A DNA stretch of 54,993 nt from a virus (lineage: Duplodnaviria; Caudoviricetes). Location: positions 1-54,993 of IMG/VR virus record IMGVR_UViG_3300045977_000377. The stretch is one strand, 5' to 3'. The notes under the pieces are model-generated. The model saw nothing but the letters and a program-made list of their open reading frames with translations, made no database searches and was not told the DNA's origin. Each line of letters opens with the position of its first letter. Position 1 is the stretch's first letter. This document shows, one piece after another, positions 16,983-25,487 of the stretch. The translations under genes and the position numbers were made by a program.

Positions 16983-17446
16983 TATGGATCTCCTGACTCT
17001 TGCGTTTCGGTTTCGATCACAAACAGATCGATCTGCTCCGGGTCCGTCTCGCGCTTCACGTTCGCGATGACGGTGCGGATCACGCCCGGCATGATGGGGC
17101 AGTAGTGCCAGCGTTGCGTGTCGCCGGGATCGGGCACGCCGTTCACGATCAGCCGCGCGAGCGTGTAGGGCGACTGCCCGCGTTGCGCCCGCAGGTAGAG
17201 GCTCGCGTAATGCGTGGTCTGCACGATGCCGCCGTCCCCGGCTTCGAGCGGCGCCTCGTTCCAGACCACCATCACCGAGCCCGGCCGCTGGCTGTACTTG
17301 GCGGCCTCGACCCTATTCGCGAGCGGCTGGAGATCGATGTACCCGAAGATCGACGCGGGCTCCGGCGGATCGAGCGCCGCGACCAGCGGCGGGATGCGCC
17401 GCAGCACGTCGACCATCGCGTTGGTGAATTCGATCAGATCGATCAT
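16982..17446 (-). CDS. tail terminator / neck protein
   Basis: start MIDLIEFTN overlaps the upstream stop (ATGA); gene order. Confidence 0.55.
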   Translation of the reverse strand: MIDLIEFTNAMVDVLRRIPPLVAALDPPEPASIFGYIDLQPLANRVEAAKYSQRPGSVMVVWNEAPLEAGDGGIVQTTHYASLYLRAQRGQSPYTLARLIVNGVPDPGDTQRWHYCPIMPGVIRTVIANVKRETDPEQIDLFVIETETQESGDP

Positions 17447-17895
17447 CGCGTCTGTCCGCTGAGTGGAATCCAGGCCGACTTCAGATACTGGCCGTATTCC
17501 TTCTTCGCGTCCTTGAACAGGGCCGACTGCTCCGGCCCCGAGAAGCCGATCATGTGCTCGTACTTGTCCTGGCCGCGCGCGTGCTCGCGGCCGATGCGGG
17601 ACGTGTTCTCGGCGCGGATCTCCTTGCCGATGGCCTTCCGCAGGAGGAAGTTTTCGATCATCACGCCCGAGAGATGGTTGTCGCGATACTGCGTTCCGCC
17701 GCCGCGAATCCGTTTCTTGATGAACACGTACTTCTTCGAGAGCGGCTTGGCTTCGTTGCCGGATGCGTTCTTGTGCGCGGCCCAGCGGGCCTTCTGGCGC
17801 GCGACCATCTCCTTGCCGATGCGCGTCATCTGGCCGTTGTCGAGCTTCGGCTTCTTGATGTGGCCGCTGCGCTTCACCTTGATCTTGACCGGCAT
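17443..17895 (-). CDS. basic tail-completion / virion morphogenesis protein
   Basis: 150 aa Lys/Arg-rich; KPLSKKY motif; gene order. Confidence 0.55.
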   Translation of the reverse strand: MPVKIKVKRSGHIKKPKLDNGQMTRIGKEMVARQKARWAAHKNASGNEAKPLSKKYVFIKKRIRGGGTQYRDNHLSGVMIENFLLRKAIGKEIRAENTSRIGREHARGQDKYEHMIGFSGPEQSALFKDAKKEYGQYLKSAWIPLSGQTR

Positions 17896-18392
17896 CAGGA
17901 CGCCTCCGAGTTGGCTTGCAGCACCACTCTCGAAACGCCGTAGGGCAGCGCGTCGACGCGCACCACGTCGTACTCGATCCCTCCGGCCGCGACCACGTCT
18001 CCGAGCGCGGGCGGGCGCGGGAGATCGTCATGCTTGATGTGCGCGTGCGAGTAGCGGCCGGGCGAGAGTTCCTCGCCCTCGACGCCTTCGATCCAGAGGA
18101 TCGAGATGGGGAAAACCTGCGTGTCGTCCCCGTCGATCCAGTAGTCCACGATGCGCTCGAATTCGCCCATCAGCGCGGACCAGAGCATCGGCACATGCGC
18201 TCCGGCGAAGCGGCTGACGAACGTCCCGCCGGAGTCGGACAAGGACTCGGCCAACGCCGGGTCTCCCGCCGCGCGAATTCCGGCCAGTATTGGCGACAGA
18301 CCGGAAATCGCGCTGACACGGGGATTCGCCGCGCGTCCCGCCTGACGCTTCGACAAAGCCGAGAAAGGCCCGACGAACGGGTTGCTCCGCAT
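17895..18392 (-). CDS. head-tail joining protein (gpFII-like); start uncertain
   Basis: C-terminal P.LGDVV...G.EYDVVRV motif; GGGAGG RBS before the ATG at 18392; first ~55 codons overlap a structured RNA region. Confidence 0.6.
   Translation of the reverse strand: MRSNPFVGPFSALSKRQAGRAANPRVSAISGLSPILAGIRAAGDPALAESLSDSGGTFVSRFAGAHVPMLWSALMGEFERIVDYWIDGDDTQVFPISILWIEGVEGEELSPGRYSHAHIKHDDLPRPPALGDVVAAGGIEYDVVRVDALPYGVSRVVLQANSEAS
18263..18313 (-). promoter_or_regulatory. hairpin downstream of the capsid gene (loop GUCGCCAA) followed by GGCGGGAG
   Basis: 14/15-bp stem 18271-18285/18299-18313; loop and tail complementary to the 19437-19500 element. Confidence 0.6.
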
Positions 18393-18405
18393 GGCCCGGC
18401 CTCCC

Positions 18406-19422
18406 TTAGATGACCTTGGCCTTGAGACTCGCGTTGGGCCGGTAGGGGACCACCAGCGGCGCCGACTGCAGCATGATGAAGCGCACCGAGGGATCGGGCT
18501 CCGTCCACGATTTGACGTAGAACGGCATCGCCTGCAGGCCCGCCTCCTCGTCGCGAATCGCGCCGAACGCGCGCACGCCGTCGAGTTGCTGCGATGCCAT
18601 GATCACCGAATCCGCCGGGATGATCGGCTTCTCCGTCGAGTCGGCCGGGTCGACGTACCACGAGGAGTAGACGATGATGTTGAAGCCGTCGATGTTGCCG
18701 ACGCTCATCCCGCCCTCGGTCGATCCCGCCGCGTTGAGCGAGAGCGATGTGTCGGTCCCGCGCCGGATGTCGAGCCGGGCCTTCACGTCGTCATGGTTGC
18801 GGAACACCTTCCATACCGCGACCGGCATGATCACGTCCGTCATGTAGATGCCGGTCGATTGCAGTCCGGTCTGCGCCCACTCCTGCAGATCGTCCAGCGG
18901 ATGCGAGCCCGCCGCGCTCCAGAGCGTCGAAGCGGTGATGGTGTTTCCCGCCGCGCGGCCGAAGTCCACGATGGCCTGCGGATACTTCTCTCCGACGATG
19001 GTGACCTTGCCGGTCGCGAGGATCTCGCCCGCCATGGTTTCGAGCCTGCGGTTGAGCATCGACTTCTGGTCTTCCATCGAAGCCGCGATGAGCGCGCGGA
19101 GCCGGTCGCCGGGGCTCATCGTGCCGCCGATGCTCTCGCCCGCCGACCGCTTGAACGGCCGGTGCATGTCGAAGACGCGCTTGTCTTTCACGTAGGCCGG
19201 TTTGAAGACTCCCGTCCGGTAACCGGGCGACTCCACGATCTGCCCCTCCACCAGGAAGCTGACGAAGGGCGCGATGCGCCGCGTGCCGTCGACCACGTCG
19301 AAATGGATCTCCTCGCCGGTCTCGATTTGCACCGTCGGGAAATAGCGGTCCAGCAGAAACTGCGTCTGACCTTTCAGGTCCGCGATGACCCGATTGAGCG
19401 TGCTCGTGCTCCAGAGGTCCAT
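18406..19422 (-). CDS. major capsid protein (lambda gpE family)
   Basis: 338 aa; FLLDRYFP, IAPFVS, FKPAYVKDK, C-terminal QSAPL motifs typical of Phage_cap_E. Confidence 0.93.
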   Translation of the reverse strand: MDLWSTSTLNRVIADLKGQTQFLLDRYFPTVQIETGEEIHFDVVDGTRRIAPFVSFLVEGQIVESPGYRTGVFKPAYVKDKRVFDMHRPFKRSAGESIGGTMSPGDRLRALIAASMEDQKSMLNRRLETMAGEILATGKVTIVGEKYPQAIVDFGRAAGNTITASTLWSAAGSHPLDDLQEWAQTGLQSTGIYMTDVIMPVAVWKVFRNHDDVKARLDIRRGTDTSLSLNAAGSTEGGMSVGNIDGFNIIVYSSWYVDPADSTEKPIIPADSVIMASQQLDGVRAFGAIRDEEAGLQAMPFYVKSWTEPDPSVRFIMLQSAPLVVPYRPNASLKAKVI

Positions 19423-19426
19423 CGGA

Positions 19427-19500
19427 CTCTCCTACTGGCGGGAGTTAGAGGTTGCGGTTTGCCGTCTGACGGGGCCGTCGCCAAACGCCCGTCAGACGGC
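19427..19500 (-). promoter_or_regulatory. capsid 5' leader: 13-bp hairpin (loop UUGGCGAC), anti-SD CUCCCGCC, SD AGGAGAG
   Basis: perfect inverted repeat 19461-19473/19488-19500; CUCC can pair with the GGAG of the SD. Confidence 0.65.
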
Positions 19501-19514
19501 GGATTCTGCGGCTG

Positions 19515-20213
19515 CTACTTGCGGTTCGCGTGCGGCGGCTCGGGCGGCTTCGCGACCACCTGCTTGGCGGGCGGCTTCTCTCCGCTCTTCTCCTGCTCCT
19601 CCGCGAACTCCTCGGCCGCGATGGCGAGGGCGCTCGTCGCGAGATCCGGATTGTCGACCTTCTCGTCGGGCGTCAGGTAGGCGAACGGAGAGTCGGACGG
19701 AGGCTGCTTCTCCTCGTCTTCCTCCCCGGCTTCCTTCTCGCTTTCCTTGGCGGCCGCGCGGGCCTTCTTCAAATTCTTCATGGCCTCGGCCGCCTCCTCG
19801 GTGGTGGGGACCGACTTGACGAGCGAGCCGTCCGCGATGATCACGCTCTCGATGTAGATGCCCACATCGCGCAGCGCTTCGGTGCAGTCGGCGTGAACGA
19901 GCGCGCCCGGCCACTGGATGGCGTCGGCCTTCATGCGGCCGGTGAGGTAGACGCCCGCCTGCACGGTAGCGGTGGTGGCGTCCACGTCATCGACCAGGAC
20001 GCAGTTGCAATCGGCGGCGGCCGCCGGGACGGTGATGACTCCGGTGGCGGGAACGATTTTCAGAATCGCGCCGCGCTTCAGGATGCCGATGCCCGACGCG
20101 ACCGTGCCCTTGCGCGAGGTCACATCGTGGCCGTCCGCGAGAAGCGCGGAGAGAAACGTCGGCGTCGAAAACCCGAAGCTGGCTTTGCTGATCGGATCGT
20201 AAGTAGCGGGCAT
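19515..20213 (-). CDS. head decoration protein (gpD-like) with acidic C-terminal extension
   Basis: LKRGAIL...VLVDDVDAT...VYLTG motifs; between protease and capsid genes. Confidence 0.75.
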   Translation of the reverse strand: MPATYDPISKASFGFSTPTFLSALLADGHDVTSRKGTVASGIGILKRGAILKIVPATGVITVPAAAADCNCVLVDDVDATTATVQAGVYLTGRMKADAIQWPGALVHADCTEALRDVGIYIESVIIADGSLVKSVPTTEEAAEAMKNLKKARAAAKESEKEAGEEDEEKQPPSDSPFAYLTPDEKVDNPDLATSALAIAAEEFAEEQEKSGEKPPAKQVVAKPPEPPHANRK

Positions 20214-20236
20214 GAAGTCTCCTTCCTGGTCACTGG

Positions 20237-21532
20237 TTACGCCGCGTTGTGGCGACGGTCCTTCGGGACGAACGCGAGAATGCGCTGCGCCTCGCTCGCC
20301 TCGGGGTCTTCCTCGGGGCCGCGCGTGCCGACCGCCGGGTTCTGGATGCCCGCCATGCGCGCGGCCAACGGGTCGGCCGGTGGCTTCGCGTCTGGCGTCG
20401 GCGCCGCCGCGAGAATCTTCTTCGCGGCCTCGGGCGTCATGTCGGTTTCGAGCGCGAGCGCGCGGGCGAGCCCTTCGCGCCCTTTGGCCTCGGGCGCGTC
20501 GAGGATGGCCGCGATGCGTTGCCGCTCGGCCTGCACGCGGGCGCCGTCGACGGCGGGCGCGAGAGCGACAGGCGCCGGTTGCGGTTGCGGTTCAGGTGGA
20601 GCCGCCGGGGCCGGAGCCGCCGGAGGCGTCGGATTCGGATTGTCTGCCATGGGTCTAACCTCCTGACTAACTGCGATGGACACGGCGCGCGGCGCGGACT
20701 CAGCCGCTAGGCGCGCCACCAGCGGCTCGAAGCTCCCGATCTCGTCGGCCATGCCCGCCGCGACGGCGTCGGCCGCAATCATCACCGAGCCCTGCCCGAA
20801 GCGGGACTCAACGGTTTCTGTTGAGACGCCGCGCAACGCGGCGACCCGGCCGATGAAGATCTCCGCGAGCGCGTCGACCACTTTCAAGATCTGCGCGCGG
20901 CCGTCGTCGGTCGCCGGATCGGTTCGCTTGAGCGGGCTCTTCGAGGACACGATCTCGTACTGCTTGACTCCCTGCCGCTCCTGCGCCGCGCGGTTGTCGC
21001 GCAGCGAAGCCACCACGCCGATGGAGCCCAACAGGGCCGACTCGACGGCCACGATGCGCGGCGCGGCGGCCGCAATCCAGTAGCCCGCCGACGCGGCCAT
21101 GTGGTCGACGTATGCGGTCACCGGCTTGATCTTCGAGCCCGCGCGGATCTGGTCCGCGAACTCCTGCACGCCGTCGATCTGGCCGCCGGGCGAGTCGACA
21201 TCGAGCAGGACGTGCTTCACCTGCGGATTGTCGAGCGCGGTCTGGAAGTCGCGCGCCAGCGTCTGGATCGAGGACGCGCCCGAGAGTTCCGTCATGAGGT
21301 TCGCGTAGCGGAAGAGCGGGCCGGTGACGCCGAGGATCGCCACGCCGTTGCGGATCTCGACCGAGTTGCCCGCGTTTTCGAGCGGGCGGCCGAGCTTCGC
21401 CGCGACGGCGTCGAGGTCGACCTTCCCGGCTTCGTCCACGCGCGCGATGATCTCGTTCAGCCAGTCCGACGTGACCACCCATGGATGGTTGTGGATCTGC
21501 GCCAGCACGCGGAGGAGTTGAGAGCGAGGCAT
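20237..21532 (-). CDS. S49 capsid maturation protease with C-terminal scaffold (gpC/Nu3-like)
   Basis: DVDSPGG, MAASAGYWIA, GSIGV motifs; Pro/Ala linker then AERQRIAAIL. Confidence 0.92.
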   Translation of the reverse strand: MPRSQLLRVLAQIHNHPWVVTSDWLNEIIARVDEAGKVDLDAVAAKLGRPLENAGNSVEIRNGVAILGVTGPLFRYANLMTELSGASSIQTLARDFQTALDNPQVKHVLLDVDSPGGQIDGVQEFADQIRAGSKIKPVTAYVDHMAASAGYWIAAAAPRIVAVESALLGSIGVVASLRDNRAAQERQGVKQYEIVSSKSPLKRTDPATDDGRAQILKVVDALAEIFIGRVAALRGVSTETVESRFGQGSVMIAADAVAAGMADEIGSFEPLVARLAAESAPRAVSIAVSQEVRPMADNPNPTPPAAPAPAAPPEPQPQPAPVALAPAVDGARVQAERQRIAAILDAPEAKGREGLARALALETDMTPEAAKKILAAAPTPDAKPPADPLAARMAGIQNPAVGTRGPEEDPEASEAQRILAFVPKDRRHNAA

Positions 21533-23316
21533 TACGCCGCCTTCCTCGCCTTCTCGTCGGGCGCGTCTTCCTCTTCGCCGTCGCCTTCCTCGCCGTCCTC
21601 TTCGCCGCCTTCTTCCTCGGCGTCATCGTCCGCGTCCGGATCGTCGGGCGGCTCGGGCTTTGCTCCCTGCGGCGGCATGGCGGCCGCGAGCCCCAACTGC
21701 CGGGCGCGCTCCAACTCCAGAGCGCGTTGTTCCTGCACCTCGTTCCAGTCGAGCCCCTGCTCGGCGCATTCGAGTTCAAGCGTTGAGATCATGGTCCCCA
21801 ACCTTATCTGCGCGGCTTGCGCTTCCTTCACCGGATCGATCCAGCCGCGCCCCGGCCCGATCCACTTACTCCGCAGATAGAACGGCATCAACTCGTAGAA
21901 GTTGGGCGCGTCGATCATGCCCGCGCTGACGGCCTCTTCAAACCAGAGCTTGTAAACGGCCGAGCACCAGTAGATCGAGAGCCACGTCCTGCGGCCGATG
22001 AAGAACCTCCACGCCTCCAGCAACGCGGCTCGCGCGCTAGAGTAATTCGTCTTCGAGAAATCCTTGAGCACTAACTCATACGGCAGGCCGATGGCCGCGC
22101 CGATCTGCCGGATCACCGCTTCGACGAAGTTGGAGAACTGCGGCGCCGGGCGCGCCGGAACGAACGGCGTCAACTCGTCGCCGGGGTAGAGCGGCACGAG
22201 GCTTCCGCCTTCCATCTGCGGCCGGTACTCGCCCTTCTCCGAGAGGTATTTGTTGGGGTCGCCGCCCACCATCTCCGCGATGGCGACCGGGTCCATCGGC
22301 GTGGTGATCACGCCCGCCACGAGCGAGTTCACGATGCTCGACTGAAGCTCCGTCCGCTGGTAGCTGTCGAGCATGCGGAACTGCTCGATGACCGGCGAGA
22401 GAAGCGGCTTGCCGCGCGTCTGGTCGACCCGGTCCTGCGTGTAGAGATGCAGCACGCGCTTCCGGCCCCAGTCGGTTTCGGCCGGAATGCGGTCCCATTC
22501 GAGCAGCCCGATGGAGCCGAGCGTGGCGTAGCCGCCGCCCAGGAAGGCGTACAGTTCAAGCGGCGTGCCCTCAAGCTGCCGCTGCACGTGGTACGCGAGC
22601 GGGCGGCCATACACGTCCATCTCGACGCCGCCGCGCAGACGCGCGCTCGTCGGCTCGCCCTCGGGATTGGAGAGTCGATCCGTCTCGACCAACTGCAGGC
22701 AGGTGCGGAACGGCGTGTCGACGCGCTCCAGCCAGAGCGGCAGCGCGAGCGCTTCGCCGTTCGCCATCCAGGCGCGGAACACCAACTGCGTCATGGACGC
22801 GAAGTTCATCTTCCCGGCGGCGTCACATGCGGTGGTGTTCGCCCACGTCTGCCAGAGGCTCTCGACCTGTCGCGACCACTCCTCGGCCCACTTGATGTCG
22901 CGGCCGAGCGCGCGGTAATCCGGCTGCGCCGCGAGCCGCAGGCCGATGCCGACCGTATTGTCCTGCAGCGTCTGGAACGCGCCCGAGGCGATGCCCGAGT
23001 TGCGGTCGAGATCCCTGCTCCGCGCGACCAGCAGATCGTAGGACTGCAGTAGCTCCAGGTCCGCAGGCGCCCGCTCCGGTTGCCAGTTGCTGAGTTGCTT
23101 CCGGATGCGGCTCGCGCCCGCGTAGGGCGAGTCCTTGTACGGCGTGCAGCACTGGCCGCCGAAGCGCATCCCGGCCGCTGGTGGCGTCGGCGCAGGATGC
23201 GTCCAGCGGCTCCAGAGCCGCGCCAGCAATCCATGGTTCGGCGCCACGGTGGGTGTCGCTGGCGCGGCCACCGGCGCCGGAATGGAACGGCGCCGATCTT
23301 GAACGGGCGCCGTCAT
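21532..23316 (-). CDS. portal protein (lambda family)
   Basis: RSRDLDRN, QTRGKP, NYSSARAALLE, GWIDPVKEA; start MTAPVQ overlaps the gpW stop. Confidence 0.93.
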   Translation of the reverse strand: MTAPVQDRRRSIPAPVAAPATPTVAPNHGLLARLWSRWTHPAPTPPAAGMRFGGQCCTPYKDSPYAGASRIRKQLSNWQPERAPADLELLQSYDLLVARSRDLDRNSGIASGAFQTLQDNTVGIGLRLAAQPDYRALGRDIKWAEEWSRQVESLWQTWANTTACDAAGKMNFASMTQLVFRAWMANGEALALPLWLERVDTPFRTCLQLVETDRLSNPEGEPTSARLRGGVEMDVYGRPLAYHVQRQLEGTPLELYAFLGGGYATLGSIGLLEWDRIPAETDWGRKRVLHLYTQDRVDQTRGKPLLSPVIEQFRMLDSYQRTELQSSIVNSLVAGVITTPMDPVAIAEMVGGDPNKYLSEKGEYRPQMEGGSLVPLYPGDELTPFVPARPAPQFSNFVEAVIRQIGAAIGLPYELVLKDFSKTNYSSARAALLEAWRFFIGRRTWLSIYWCSAVYKLWFEEAVSAGMIDAPNFYELMPFYLRSKWIGPGRGWIDPVKEAQAAQIRLGTMISTLELECAEQGLDWNEVQEQRALELERARQLGLAAAMPPQGAKPEPPDDPDADDDAEEEGGEEDGEEGDGEEEDAPDEKARKAA

Positions 23317-23564
23317 GGGCACGCCTCGATGGAGAGAGGGCGCCGCCGCCGGAAGGCGTAAGCGGCTTCGGGATGCACGAGCGCCTCCAGTTGATCGATC
23401 AGCATCCGCAGATCCGCGACGTTGACTTCCGGGTAGACCACCCGGCCGAGTTGCGGCGTTTCGATGGCGATGGGCGATTGCCCGAGCGTGACTTCGACCA
23501 GCCGCCGCCGGGCTTTCGCCAGCATCTGTTCGAGGATCGGGTCGACTCCGTTGCCGTTCGCCAT
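23313..23564 (-). CDS. gpW-like head-to-tail joining protein
   Basis: 83 aa between terminase and portal; V.Y...DL...I..LE...RRRP pattern. Confidence 0.7.
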   Translation of the reverse strand: MANGNGVDPILEQMLAKARRRLVEVTLGQSPIAIETPQLGRVVYPEVNVADLRMLIDQLEALVHPEAAYAFRRRRPLSIEACP

Positions 23565-23567
23565 TGC

Positions 23568-25487
23568 TCACTCCAGCCAATCGGTGCGCGGGCCGCTCGA
23601 CCGGAACTGCGGGACCGGCGTGCGCGCGGCTGACGGCGCGCCCGTCGACGGGACGGCGGCCGTGGTTCGCACGTTGGGGTCGCTCAGAACGGCTTCGGTT
23701 TCGTCCCACCGCTCCGGCTTCCACGATTCCAGGCGCAGGCTCGCCGCCGCCGCTCGCGCGTAGATGCGGCAGTCGAGCGCTTCATTGCGGTCGCGGATCT
23801 TCTCCCACGAGGAGACGCGGCGGCCGCCGACGGCGCGTGTGATCAACTGCTCGGCCGTCAACTGCTCGAAGTAGTTCTTGTTGTATTCGGGGAAGTGGCA
23901 GTAACCGGCGGGCCACTCCTCGCCGCGCGTCAGATCCGGCGCGGGCTGACGGAGCCATCGGTAAAGCTCTTCCTTCGCGATGTTCACGTTGAGCGGCCAG
24001 AGCCTGATCCCGAACTTGACGCGCGAGCCGGTGGGGCCGACCTCGATCAGCTTCGCCGCGCCGAGCACCGAGGGCACGGTGGTCTGGCCTTTCACCGCCA
24101 TCACGCGCTGCCGCGATTGCTTGCGAATCCAGTCGTACACGGCCATCGTGTTGAAGCCCGAGTCGACGGCGATGCGGCGGATTCGCACGGTCTGTCCGTA
24201 CTCGGTCGCAAAGTCCTCTTCGAGCATCTCGGAGAGGTTCTGCCAAACGTGCGGCTGATGCGTCTCGCCCTCGAAGACGCGATAGTCAATCGACCAGGAC
24301 TCCTTGTTGCGGCCCCATGCGACCACCTCGACTTCGAGGCGCCGGGGATGCACGTCGACGCCTGCGGTGAGCACCAGCCCGCCGCGCGGGACCACGCCGA
24401 TCTGGTAGGTCTCCCGCCGCTCGAAGAGCCGCTCGGCGTCCGGAACCTCCGAGGCGTCGGCATACGGCAGGCCGAGCACGGTGTTCTGGAACACCTGCAC
24501 CTTCTCCGGATCGTTTCCCGCTTTCTCGCGACGTTCGGCAACTTGTCCCCAACTCAGCCAACCCACGGGAGAGTACAAGCTCGGCAGATGGTAGCCGTGG
24601 ACAATCTCGTTCACTGAACGGGGTCTCCACTGGCCGCGCGCGAGCATCCACTCCTTCTCGTGGTTGGAGATCGGTTGCGCGCACGCCTCGCAGTAATACT
24701 TCGCGAGACGCGGCTGCCCCGTCGGCCATCGCAGGTTCGCCATCTGCAGCACGAGCATCTCGCCGCAACGCGGACAGGGAACCCAGAACTGCCGCTGGTC
24801 GCTCTGCTCGTAGAAGCGCTCGATGCGCGACCGGCCGCTCACAACCGGCGTCGATGTGATCAGGATCTTCCGGCGCGGGAAGTTGGTGGTGCGCGCCATC
24901 GCCAGATCGCACGGGTCGCCCTCGCCCTCGATGTCGCCGGGGTAGGCGTCGACCTCATCGAGGAACAGATAGCGCGCCGCCATCGACCGCAGGCCGGTCG
25001 CGGAGTTCGCGCCGGTCATCACCAGGATGCCGCCGTCGAATTCCTTCGCCAGGACCGTGTTCCCCGAGTCGCGCGAGCGCGCTTCCTTCACCAACGCCGA
25101 CAGGACCGGCGAGTCCTCGATCAGCGGCTGGATGCGCTGCTTCGAGTTGCGCTTCGCCATCTCGACCGACGGCATCACGCTAAGGAACGGCCCCGGCGCG
25201 CGGTGGATCGAGTAGCCGATCCAGTTGTTGCCGGTCTCGGTCTTTCCCACCTGCGCGCCCGCCATGATGACCACCACCTCGACTCGCGAAGAGGGGGACA
25301 AATCATCCATCGGAGCGCGCAGGTACGGAACTCGCGAAGTGCGCCACGGGCCGGGCTCGGGCGAGGAGCGCTCCGTCAGCACCCGAAACTCATCGGCCCA
25401 GTCGGAGATCAGTTCACGCGGATCGGGACGCGCGCCGTCGTAGGCGCCGGAGCGGTAGACCTCGGCGGGCGTGAACGGCGCCATCAT
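23568..25487 (-). CDS. terL: terminase large subunit (lambda gpA family)
   Basis: AQVGKTE Walker A, FLDEVDAY Walker B, STP coupling motif, CPRC/CEAC Zn motif, RNEALDC. Confidence 0.95.
   Translation of the reverse strand: MMAPFTPAEVYRSGAYDGARPDPRELISDWADEFRVLTERSSPEPGPWRTSRVPYLRAPMDDLSPSSRVEVVVIMAGAQVGKTETGNNWIGYSIHRAPGPFLSVMPSVEMAKRNSKQRIQPLIEDSPVLSALVKEARSRDSGNTVLAKEFDGGILVMTGANSATGLRSMAARYLFLDEVDAYPGDIEGEGDPCDLAMARTTNFPRRKILITSTPVVSGRSRIERFYEQSDQRQFWVPCPRCGEMLVLQMANLRWPTGQPRLAKYYCEACAQPISNHEKEWMLARGQWRPRSVNEIVHGYHLPSLYSPVGWLSWGQVAERREKAGNDPEKVQVFQNTVLGLPYADASEVPDAERLFERRETYQIGVVPRGGLVLTAGVDVHPRRLEVEVVAWGRNKESWSIDYRVFEGETHQPHVWQNLSEMLEEDFATEYGQTVRIRRIAVDSGFNTMAVYDWIRKQSRQRVMAVKGQTTVPSVLGAAKLIEVGPTGSRVKFGIRLWPLNVNIAKEELYRWLRQPAPDLTRGEEWPAGYCHFPEYNKNYFEQLTAEQLITRAVGGRRVSSWEKIRDRNEALDCRIYARAAAASLRLESWKPERWDETEAVLSDPNVRTTAAVPSTGAPSAARTPVPQFRSSGPRTDWLE

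Follow-up and report, generated by a model that had tools for sequence, protein, structure and literature searches.

A conserved two-part long-range RNA complementarity brackets the major capsid gene of soil tailed phages

In the icaR mRNA of Staphylococcus aureus, pairing between the 5' and 3' untranslated regions (UTRs) through a UCCCCUG motif makes a substrate for RNase III (PMC3868564), and in the hbs mRNA of Bacillus subtilis a 14-bp interaction of the 5' UTR with the 3' UTR modulates cleavage by RNase Y (PMC5737220). Long-range anti-Shine-Dalgarno (anti-SD) pairing in Bacillus is another near concept. Here we describe an arrangement of this general kind in the IMG/VR record IMGVR_UViG_3300045977_000377, a stretch of 54,993 nucleotides (nt) from a virus of the Caudoviricetes, the whole of which is called the window below; all coordinates refer to it, and the capsid operon and the RNA elements are read on its minus strand. 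In the late mRNA of this phage and of the group of uncultured soil phages related to it, the capsid cistron is probably bracketed by a conserved two-part long-range RNA-RNA interaction, which would be a cis-acting device that sets capsid output. The segment L1 in the loop of a leader hairpin (HP1) is complementary to a segment, L2, of the loop that tops a hairpin 3' of the capsid gene (HP2), and a segment upstream of the Shine-Dalgarno sequence (SD), A1, is complementary to a second 3' segment, A2. As far as the accounts of icaR and hbs extend, the likeness is that sequence behind the stop codon forms a short pairing with the leader of the same cistron, which in those two messages acts post-transcriptionally. 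In the published icaR scheme, the SD itself is the target of the 3' motif and the effect is repression, whereas in the present case the leader contributes a hairpin loop and a segment that lies before the SD. In the clade of the window and in the largest clade of relatives (clade 2), this segment, A1, ends 1-7 nt upstream of the SD; the 3' partner is purine-rich in the window, and the duplexes reach into the SD only in two relatives, L012 and L018. Unlike icaR and hbs as reported, the present arrangement is two-part, is carried on hairpin loops, lies in a polycistronic phage late operon and has comparative support across many clades.

Kissing-loop complexes are known from ColE1 RNA I/RNA II, R1 CopA/CopT and the dimerisation site of human immunodeficiency virus type 1, where the partners are two separate molecules or the transcripts of the opposing strands of one locus. 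The common features are two stable hairpins with complementary loops of about 6-10 nt; here, however, a single transcript carries both loops, at a distance of about 1.2 kb, together with a further pairing between a loop (or tail) and a single strand. The single-stranded RNA phages MS2 and Qbeta have long-distance interactions and coat-replicase coupling, so that long-range pairing in a phage message has a precedent, in which translation in one place is tied to the condition of a ribosome binding site far away. Those phages have RNA genomes, and the partner lies in a coding region opened by ribosomes, whereas the present case concerns a double-stranded DNA (dsDNA) phage with non-coding hairpin loops that bracket a whole cistron. 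In plant viruses, 3' cap-independent translation elements kiss a hairpin in the 5' UTR and deliver eukaryotic initiation factors. There too, hairpin loops of the 5' and 3' parts meet across a distance above 1 kb and the message is closed, but the likeness is one of shape only, because bacteria have no equivalent factor route.

A catalogue of intergenic RNAs drawn from the same sequence source, IMG/VR, holds 8,495 candidate structured RNAs, whose models are local structures of 29-151 nt (PMC10690425). In its main text, the term 'long-range' occurs 0 times and 'capsid' once; HP1, HP2 or HP3 may be listed singly as local hairpins in its supplements, and a pairing over 1.2 kb is not detectable by a method whose models are local and of this size. 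When positions 17800-19800 were compared with Rfam 15 at E values up to 10, only six weak matches of 14.9-21.5 bits were returned, against gathering scores of 36-50, and these were implausible (small nucleolar RNAs and a hepatitis C virus stem-loop). No published description of such an element was found in literature searches, which agrees, together with the Rfam result, with the statement of the initial annotation that nothing equivalent had been described in tailed phages. The two-part, loop-presented bracket around the capsid cistron of a dsDNA phage is previously undescribed.

HP1 starts 14 nt after the stop codon TAG (19515-19517) of the upstream gpD-like gene. In the minimum free energy (MFE) fold, it is a perfect 13-bp stem with a 14-nt loop (19461-19500), and the loop contains UUGGCGAC (19484-19477) within the segment L1, UUGGCGACGG (19475-19484). 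The 101-nt leader had an MFE of -40.9 kcal/mol (z -2.72 against shuffles). A1 is the single-stranded segment CUCCCGCC (19437-19444), 16 nt downstream of HP1 and 3 nt short of AGGAGAG (19427-19433), which was read from the sequence as the capsid SD; the capsid ATG follows at 19422. On the other side of the gene, HP2 (18271-18313) begins 92 nt past the capsid stop codon (18408-18406) and folds into a stem of 14 pairs with a single U·U mismatch; the loop contains GUCGCCAA (18297-18290) within L2, CUGUCGCCAA (18290-18299). The 76-nt stretch around it had an MFE of -38.6 kcal/mol (z -2.71 against shuffles). A2, GGCGGGAG (18263-18270), lies directly 3' of HP2. As free strands, L1 and L2 are predicted to form a duplex of 10 bp including one G·U pair at -17.3 kcal/mol, and A1 and A2 (CUCCCGCC with GGCGGGAG) one at -18.7 kcal/mol; the major capsid gene is enclosed by both pairings. 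HP1, A1, AGGAGAG, HP2 and A2 had all been placed at these positions of the minus strand by the initial annotation, which had also proposed the two long-range complementarities. Its location of the 3' hairpin stands, although it had missed an open reading frame (ORF) that runs through HP2 and a second copy of the motif GGCGGGA (18342-18336).

This further GGCGGGA copy, the first in the direction of reading, is presented by a small hairpin, GCGUC-AGGCGG-GACGC (18333-18348), and is an alternative partner of A1 (-15.7 kcal/mol); in L012 and L007 it is the best complement of A1 (11 and 8 bp, respectively). A2 has an alternative of its own, a local pairing with AAUCCCCG at the base of HP2, and it stands 8 nt before an in-frame TTG (18254). 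As a separate observation in the window clade, each of the two GGCGGGA copies is a possible partner of AAUCCCCG and also of the leader segment CUCCCGCC (minus strand, 18333-18348 and 18263-18330). The mutually exclusive helices of AAUCCCCG, CUCCCGCC and the two GGCGGGA copies look like a switch in their own right.

The flanks of the capsid gene were then compared among relatives, which are designated by L numbers. A scan of viral contigs gave 92 candidate stretches, of which 88 were confirmed as relatives and 80 were kept, with capsids 50-88% identical. Both flanks were complete in 72 relatives and the window; after removal of the 8 loci with an incomplete flank and of 8 duplicates, 64 of the 80 viral loci remained, giving 65 distinct flank pairs with the window. 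A collection of genomes gave only four loci, all in soil metagenome-assembled genomes (MAGs), three of which duplicate or nearly duplicate viral loci. For each locus, the longest uninterrupted helix in the leader was taken as HP1.

Reading of the flanks showed a hairpin between the decoration and capsid genes in nearly all loci, with stems that vary widely and covary; relatives thus hold a homologous HP1 with compensatory stem changes. HP2 was kept with compensatory changes in L001, L004, L007, L012 and L035. Two stable hairpins whose loops are complementary over at least about 6 nt, as expected of a kissing-loop contact, were found in the window and in relatives. The motif in the HP1 loop differs by clade, and its reverse complement in a hairpin loop 3' of the capsid gene changes along with it. 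L1 fell into 12 sequence classes, each with a match in its own 3' flank. The L1/L2 pairs include UGGCGAC/GUCGCCA, CGGCGAC/GUCGCCG, GUGGCGAC/GUCGCCAC, GGCGAUG/CAUCGCC, UAUGGGCGA/UCGCCCAUA, GGGCGAC/GUCGCCC, CUGGCAC(G)/(C)GUGCCAG, CUCUGGUAC/GUACCAGAG, CUGGAC/GUCCAG, UUGGGGAA/UUCCCCAA and GAACGGCG/CGCCGUU.

The strength of this match was assessed by the longest Watson-Crick run between the two loops. Against letter-shuffled L1, p was 0.05 or less in 34 of the 65 loci, 0.01 or less in 19 and 0.001 or less in 3; several of the failures were MFE misfolds or duplexes that contain G·U pairs. In the 61 classifiable loci of the 12 classes, the mean longest run was 6.25 nt for cognate loops and 6.24 for non-cognate loops of the same class, and it fell to 4.51 between different classes. 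A permutation at the level of classes, loop against loop, gave a median p of 0.0005 (the floor of 2,000 permutations), with p of 0.001 or less in 85% of 200 choices of representatives and 0.069 in the worst; against the whole flank, the same test was weaker (median p 0.007, maximum 0.26). Fisher's combination over the 12 representatives, including two that fail, gave 2.2e-11. The G·U-tolerant choice of the best duplex hit spurious sites in some loci (for example L043, L050, L051, L056, L061 and L063), and these rows were kept in the counts.

The second pairing was followed in the same flanks. In clade 2, A1, 1-7 nt upstream of the SD, reads CCCAGU plus variable bases, and A2 is the loop of a second 3' hairpin that reads ACUGGG plus the matching bases, as in ACACCCAGUAC/GUACUGGGUGU, CCCAGUGCG/CGCACUGGG, CCCAGUGA/UCACUGGG and UCCCCAGUAAC/GUUACUGGGGA. 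When the pairing was extended from the anchor CCAGU/ACUGG, the cognate mean was 2.44 as compared with a permuted mean of 1.82, a value reached in 19 of 20,000 permutations, and the duplexes attained up to 11 bp. In the window clade, the A1/A2 pairs are CUCCCGCC/GGCGGGAG in the window, CACCCGCC/GGCGGGUG in L001 and GCCCGCC/GGCGGGC in L012, with L004 as an intermediate that has one mismatch. Over the 65 distinct sequences, L1 and L2 thus match in spite of their change from clade to clade, and A1:A2 covaries as well; this comparison indicates that the L1:L2 and A1:A2 complementarities are real, conserved features.

Clade 2 was further examined in a MAFFT alignment of 26 sequences by sliding the partners against each other and by 500 column shuffles. 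Over all helices, 88.0% of the cells were paired as compared with 35-51% when slid, and none of the 500 column shuffles reached the observed value on four of five measures. The HP1 stem was paired in 96.1% of the cells, with 6 of its 11 pairs changed on both sides. For the long-range helices alone, 83.1% were paired as compared with 34.5-50.0% when slid, and one long-range position was clearly compensatory (C-G 14, U-A 4, U-G 4, other 4). G·U pairs outnumbered A·C mismatches by 119 to 22 in the local stems and by 15 to 3 in L1:L2; on the same alignment, the ratio of 6 to 8 for A1:A2 is uninformative as to strand. The excess of G·U, the placement of the motifs in loops, the lack of likeness between the HP1 and HP2 stems and the occurrence of two distinct motif pairs favour pairing of the sense-strand RNA over paired DNA sites.

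Several observations weigh against a functional bracket. The double match in the window alone is not beyond chance. TTGGCGAC occurs 4 times in the window (2.7 expected) and GGCGGGAG 7 times (6.0 expected), the longest complement between the apical region of HP1 and the whole 167-nt 3' flank gave p=0.116 with dinucleotide shuffles, and shuffled GC-rich flanks have a mean run of 5.5 nt. When only hairpin loops were compared with hairpin loops, p was 0.001; the case for more than chance comes from the related sequences. There, L1 matched the whole 3' flank at p of 0.05 or less in only 20 of the 65 loci, and flank tests within classes were modest (130 of 20,000 in the GGCGA class and 1,460 of 20,000 in the CUGG class). 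Because the classes follow clades, the number of independent events is about a dozen rather than 65. Within clade 2, the long-range helices did not exceed the column shuffles, whose mean of 83.0% paired cells lies at the observed value (reached by 244 of 500; covariation score, 69 of 500). Inside this clade, the long-range pairs are two complementary motifs that are conserved rather than covarying, apart from the one clearly compensatory position; compensatory change that keeps the loops complementary is found between clades. Moreover, clade 2 and the window clade are the only ones with a clear A1:A2, and comparison of the flanks gave no convincing second pairing in several subclades of the GGCGAC type.

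Among the cultured relatives Seregon, BZS1, ZRG1 and phiAP1, which have enough intergenic room, no analogous pair was found but only ordinary hairpins behind the capsid gene, apart from one 7-nt match in BZS1 that was taken as chance; in KLER1-1 and Cr-LKS3, the gap of 9-12 nt between the gpD and gpE genes leaves no room for HP1. The closest capsid of a cultured phage is 46.7% identical to that of the window. In four soil metatranscriptome runs, contig pieces identical to the head region (17000-21000) were present, for example 17171-18222 and 19352-19838 in run X21. These pieces are patchy, low-depth contigs, some of which cross HP1, and they give no ends, strand or levels; transcription of the head region is not proven by them, because DNA carry-over is possible. 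Where HP2 lies 3-8 nt after the stop codon, a terminating ribosome should melt it, so that the kiss could not persist during active translation.

Finally, HP2 of the window clade lies inside an open frame. In the window, this frame belongs to the downstream ORF (17895-18392, minus strand), listed as 165 amino acids without a family match and with a conserved core from about residue 59. With a strong SD in front of it, this ORF begins 14 nt past the capsid stop, and no stop codon interrupts it across HP2 and GGCGGGAG. The GC signal at its third codon positions stays weak as far as about 18260, and the N-terminal part across HP2 is possibly, though not necessarily, translated. In L007, the nucleotides of the HP2 loop are kept in another reading frame through compensating 1-nt indels, which points to a constraint at the level of nucleotides, whether the stretch is translated or not.

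The positions of the hairpins bear on how such a bracket might work. HP1 follows the upstream stop codon at a median of 14 nt (interquartile range (IQR) 11-16) and precedes the capsid start at a median of 43 nt (IQR 37-46; both 61/62 loci). The program that located stop codons took a wrong-frame TGA inside HP1 in the window, L001, L004 and L011, and the value of 14 for the window was read directly from the sequence. On the 3' side, the best L1 complement starts no more than 22 nt from the capsid stop in 29 of the 65 loci. The conserved core of the next gene was found in 56 loci and mostly starts 77-110 nt past the capsid stop, behind the RNA module; 13 loci have a start no more than 15 nt from the capsid stop, and this keeps the frame open. 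In at least 7 loci with genes inserted further downstream or with the usual next gene missing, the module still adjoins the capsid stop.

Two variations of this order were observed. L071 (3518-3900), L084 and L046 have an additional ORF of about 120 codons behind the capsid gene; the 3' module there stands 2 nt past the stop of that ORF, so that the loop there would enclose two genes. L018 and L023 also carry an extra gene after the capsid gene and have a wholly different loop pair, UUGGGGAAG with CUUCCCCAA, 63-122 nt past the stop. At the 5' side, a single-stranded motif, AAACCGCAAC, directly follows HP1 (19445-19460 in the window, minus strand) and is kept in L009, L011, L012, L013, L014, L024 and L025, with GCAUGACC at its place in other clades; no complementary partner was found for AAACCGCAAC.

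From these data we infer that the pairings form in vivo and serve a function. L1 would pair with L2 in a kissing-loop contact of 6-10 bp and A1 with A2, and the two contacts together would close the capsid cistron from start to end into a loop. The resulting cis-acting, post-transcriptional device would set capsid output apart from that of the neighbouring late genes and would act together with ribosomes. This link to ribosomes is suggested by the short fixed distances of both hairpins behind stop codons and by the position of A1 against the ribosome binding site: HP1 would stand at the leading edge of a ribosome that terminates on the decoration gene, and the 3' hairpin, in about half of the loci, would be within reach of a ribosome that terminates on the capsid gene. 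As to how output would be set within this reading, coupling of termination to reinitiation (or sensing of ribosome traffic) and protection from ribonucleases (or their guidance) appear about equally plausible, each falling somewhat short of an even chance; unmasking of the SD is unlikely, and other routes would account for the remainder. A more specific version, which we regard as speculative, is a ribosome-gated closed loop. The capsid stop codon and the ribosome binding site would be held together by the two RNA contacts, and the contact through the HP2 loop would be melted at each termination, so that the loop would read ribosome traffic and either return terminating ribosomes to the capsid start or meter capsid against decoration-protein synthesis.

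An alternative that retains the pairings is a scaffold for processing or stability, in which the HP1 stem, the loop-loop helix and the HP2 stem stack coaxially and guide a double-strand-specific ribonuclease to excise the capsid cistron, or shield its ends, with no direct effect on translation. The dimensions would suit it, since stems of 11-15 bp and 5-13 bp with a kiss of 6-10 bp would stack to about 25-35 bp. The capsid protein of lambda-type heads is needed in far more copies than the flanking products. Both icaR, as an RNase III substrate (PMC3868564), and hbs, through RNase Y (PMC5737220), are precedents in the form in which they have been reported. On the other hand, RNA contigs run across HP1, although the four runs are patchy and hold no mappable ends; the tight spacing to stop codons and SD has no obvious role in a pure ribonuclease model, and the hosts are uncultured. 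We consider this scaffold possible but doubtful as an explanation in place of the cis-acting device favoured here.

The initial annotation had proposed a translation switch: A1 acts as an anti-SD that hides the SD, the kiss nucleates pairing, GGCGGGAG captures A1 and the ribosome binding site opens, so that capsid translation would be boosted, or would have to wait until transcription of the whole cistron is complete. Some features fit this proposal. In the isolated leader of the window, the MFE fold pairs CUCCC with GGAGAG; A1 has two mutually exclusive partners, of which the long-range one is the stronger (-18.7 kcal/mol); both long-range pairings have comparative support; and the predicted probability that the SD is unpaired was below 0.5 in 45 of 61 loci, suggesting that some masking is common. 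However, blocking of A1 in silico changed the mean unpaired probability of the SD only from 0.35 to 0.36 (n=61) and that of the window from 0.27 to 0.26, with a gain above 0.2 in only 6 of the 61 loci, figures that are thermodynamic models only. Once the start of the ORF was included in the fold, the SD of the window paired with downstream sequence instead. The designation of A1 as an anti-SD also fails in the largest clade, where CCCAGU plus variable bases lacks complementarity to GGAGG. The long-range duplex of L012, CCCGCCGAAGG, would overlap the purine-rich SD region in part and would repress rather than activate. The switch finds no support in these models and is improbable, and capture of the anti-SD is unlikely as a general explanation.

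A feature of the DNA would be another way to obtain matched flanks: inverted copies of a protein-binding or recombination site on both sides of the capsid gene, both fitting the same protein. Inverted short repeats that co-vary are also expected of paired protein-binding sites, and the motifs of clade 2 are conserved and not covarying. Nevertheless, the predominance of G·U over A·C noted above for L1:L2 and for the stems is expected only for sense-strand RNA, the motifs always lie in loops of hairpins with covarying stems, and the two unrelated motif pairs would require two proteins. The same role is moreover filled by about a dozen quite different sequences, and inversion of a capsid gene in a late operon has no evident use. 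We therefore regard a DNA-level origin as very improbable. Chance complementarity of GC-rich hairpins with separate local roles (as stabilisers or pause sites) would suit the window by itself, with its 8-mers at chance frequency, its whole-flank p value and the run length of shuffled flanks, but is hardly credible for the relatives, in view of the class-level permutation and the Fisher value, the conserved place of the complement in the 3' hairpin loop, the independent covariation of the second pairing and the retention of the partner despite ORF insertion.

Several ordinary explanations of the hairpins were also tried and rejected. An intrinsic terminator, for which a U tract directly behind a GC-rich hairpin is required, was not found at HP1 or HP2 in a scan of 17800-20300; HP1 is followed by AAACCGCAACC and HP2 by GGCGGGAGACC. 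For loops of the CUGGCAC type, a sigma-54 promoter was considered, but by eye the spacing GG-N10-GC is absent, and other clades have unrelated loops. HP1 and HP2 are not inverted copies of one element, as their stems are unrelated, and a dispersed palindromic repeat similar to repetitive extragenic palindromes was discarded on the unlike stems and the chance-level counts of TTGGCGAC and GGCGGGAG.

The head module in which the bracket lies is on the minus strand in lambda order, as identified by matches to the Pfam families PF05136, PF01343, PF02924 and PF03864, and is thus of the lambda type. The portal gene (21532-23724, PF05136) encodes a protein of 730 amino acids whose lambda-family portal domain covers residues 209-579, with extensions of about 200 residues at the N terminus and about 150 at the C terminus that have no family match. 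It is followed by the gene of an S49 protease (20237-21532, PF01343) and the gpD-like head decoration gene (19515-20213), for which the PF02924 match (E 4.7e-06) was below the curated cut-off and the match to phrog_49, head decoration, had an E value of 4.8e-12. The decoration protein has 232 amino acids and is roughly twice as long as lambda gpD; the family match spans residues 24-125 only, and the C-terminal half is of low complexity, acidic and proline-rich. The major capsid protein gene (18406-19422) encodes 338 amino acids of the lambda gpE family, with a full-length match to PF03864 (E 1.1e-70). Further ORFs of the head region had no family matches. The DNA of the window is present in soil metagenome runs, and the relatives are soil viral contigs and soil MAGs.

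Tailed phages make hundreds of capsid subunits per virion and few copies of the neighbouring products from one late transcript, and the ratio of capsid to neighbours is mostly put down to how strong the local ribosome binding sites are. With a conserved RNA bridge joining both ends of the capsid cistron, dsDNA phages would have a new layer of control, and bacteria a rare example of an mRNA that its own ends close, for which the natural variants read like a series of compensatory mutations. Functional pairings over more than 1 kb would escape scans that look for local structure between genes. With about 90 nt upstream and about 90-150 nt downstream of the gene, the element is compact and could perhaps be reused as a portable expression module. 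The ribosome-gated closed loop, if true, would be a prokaryotic, RNA-only counterpart of the closed-loop mRNA of eukaryotes.

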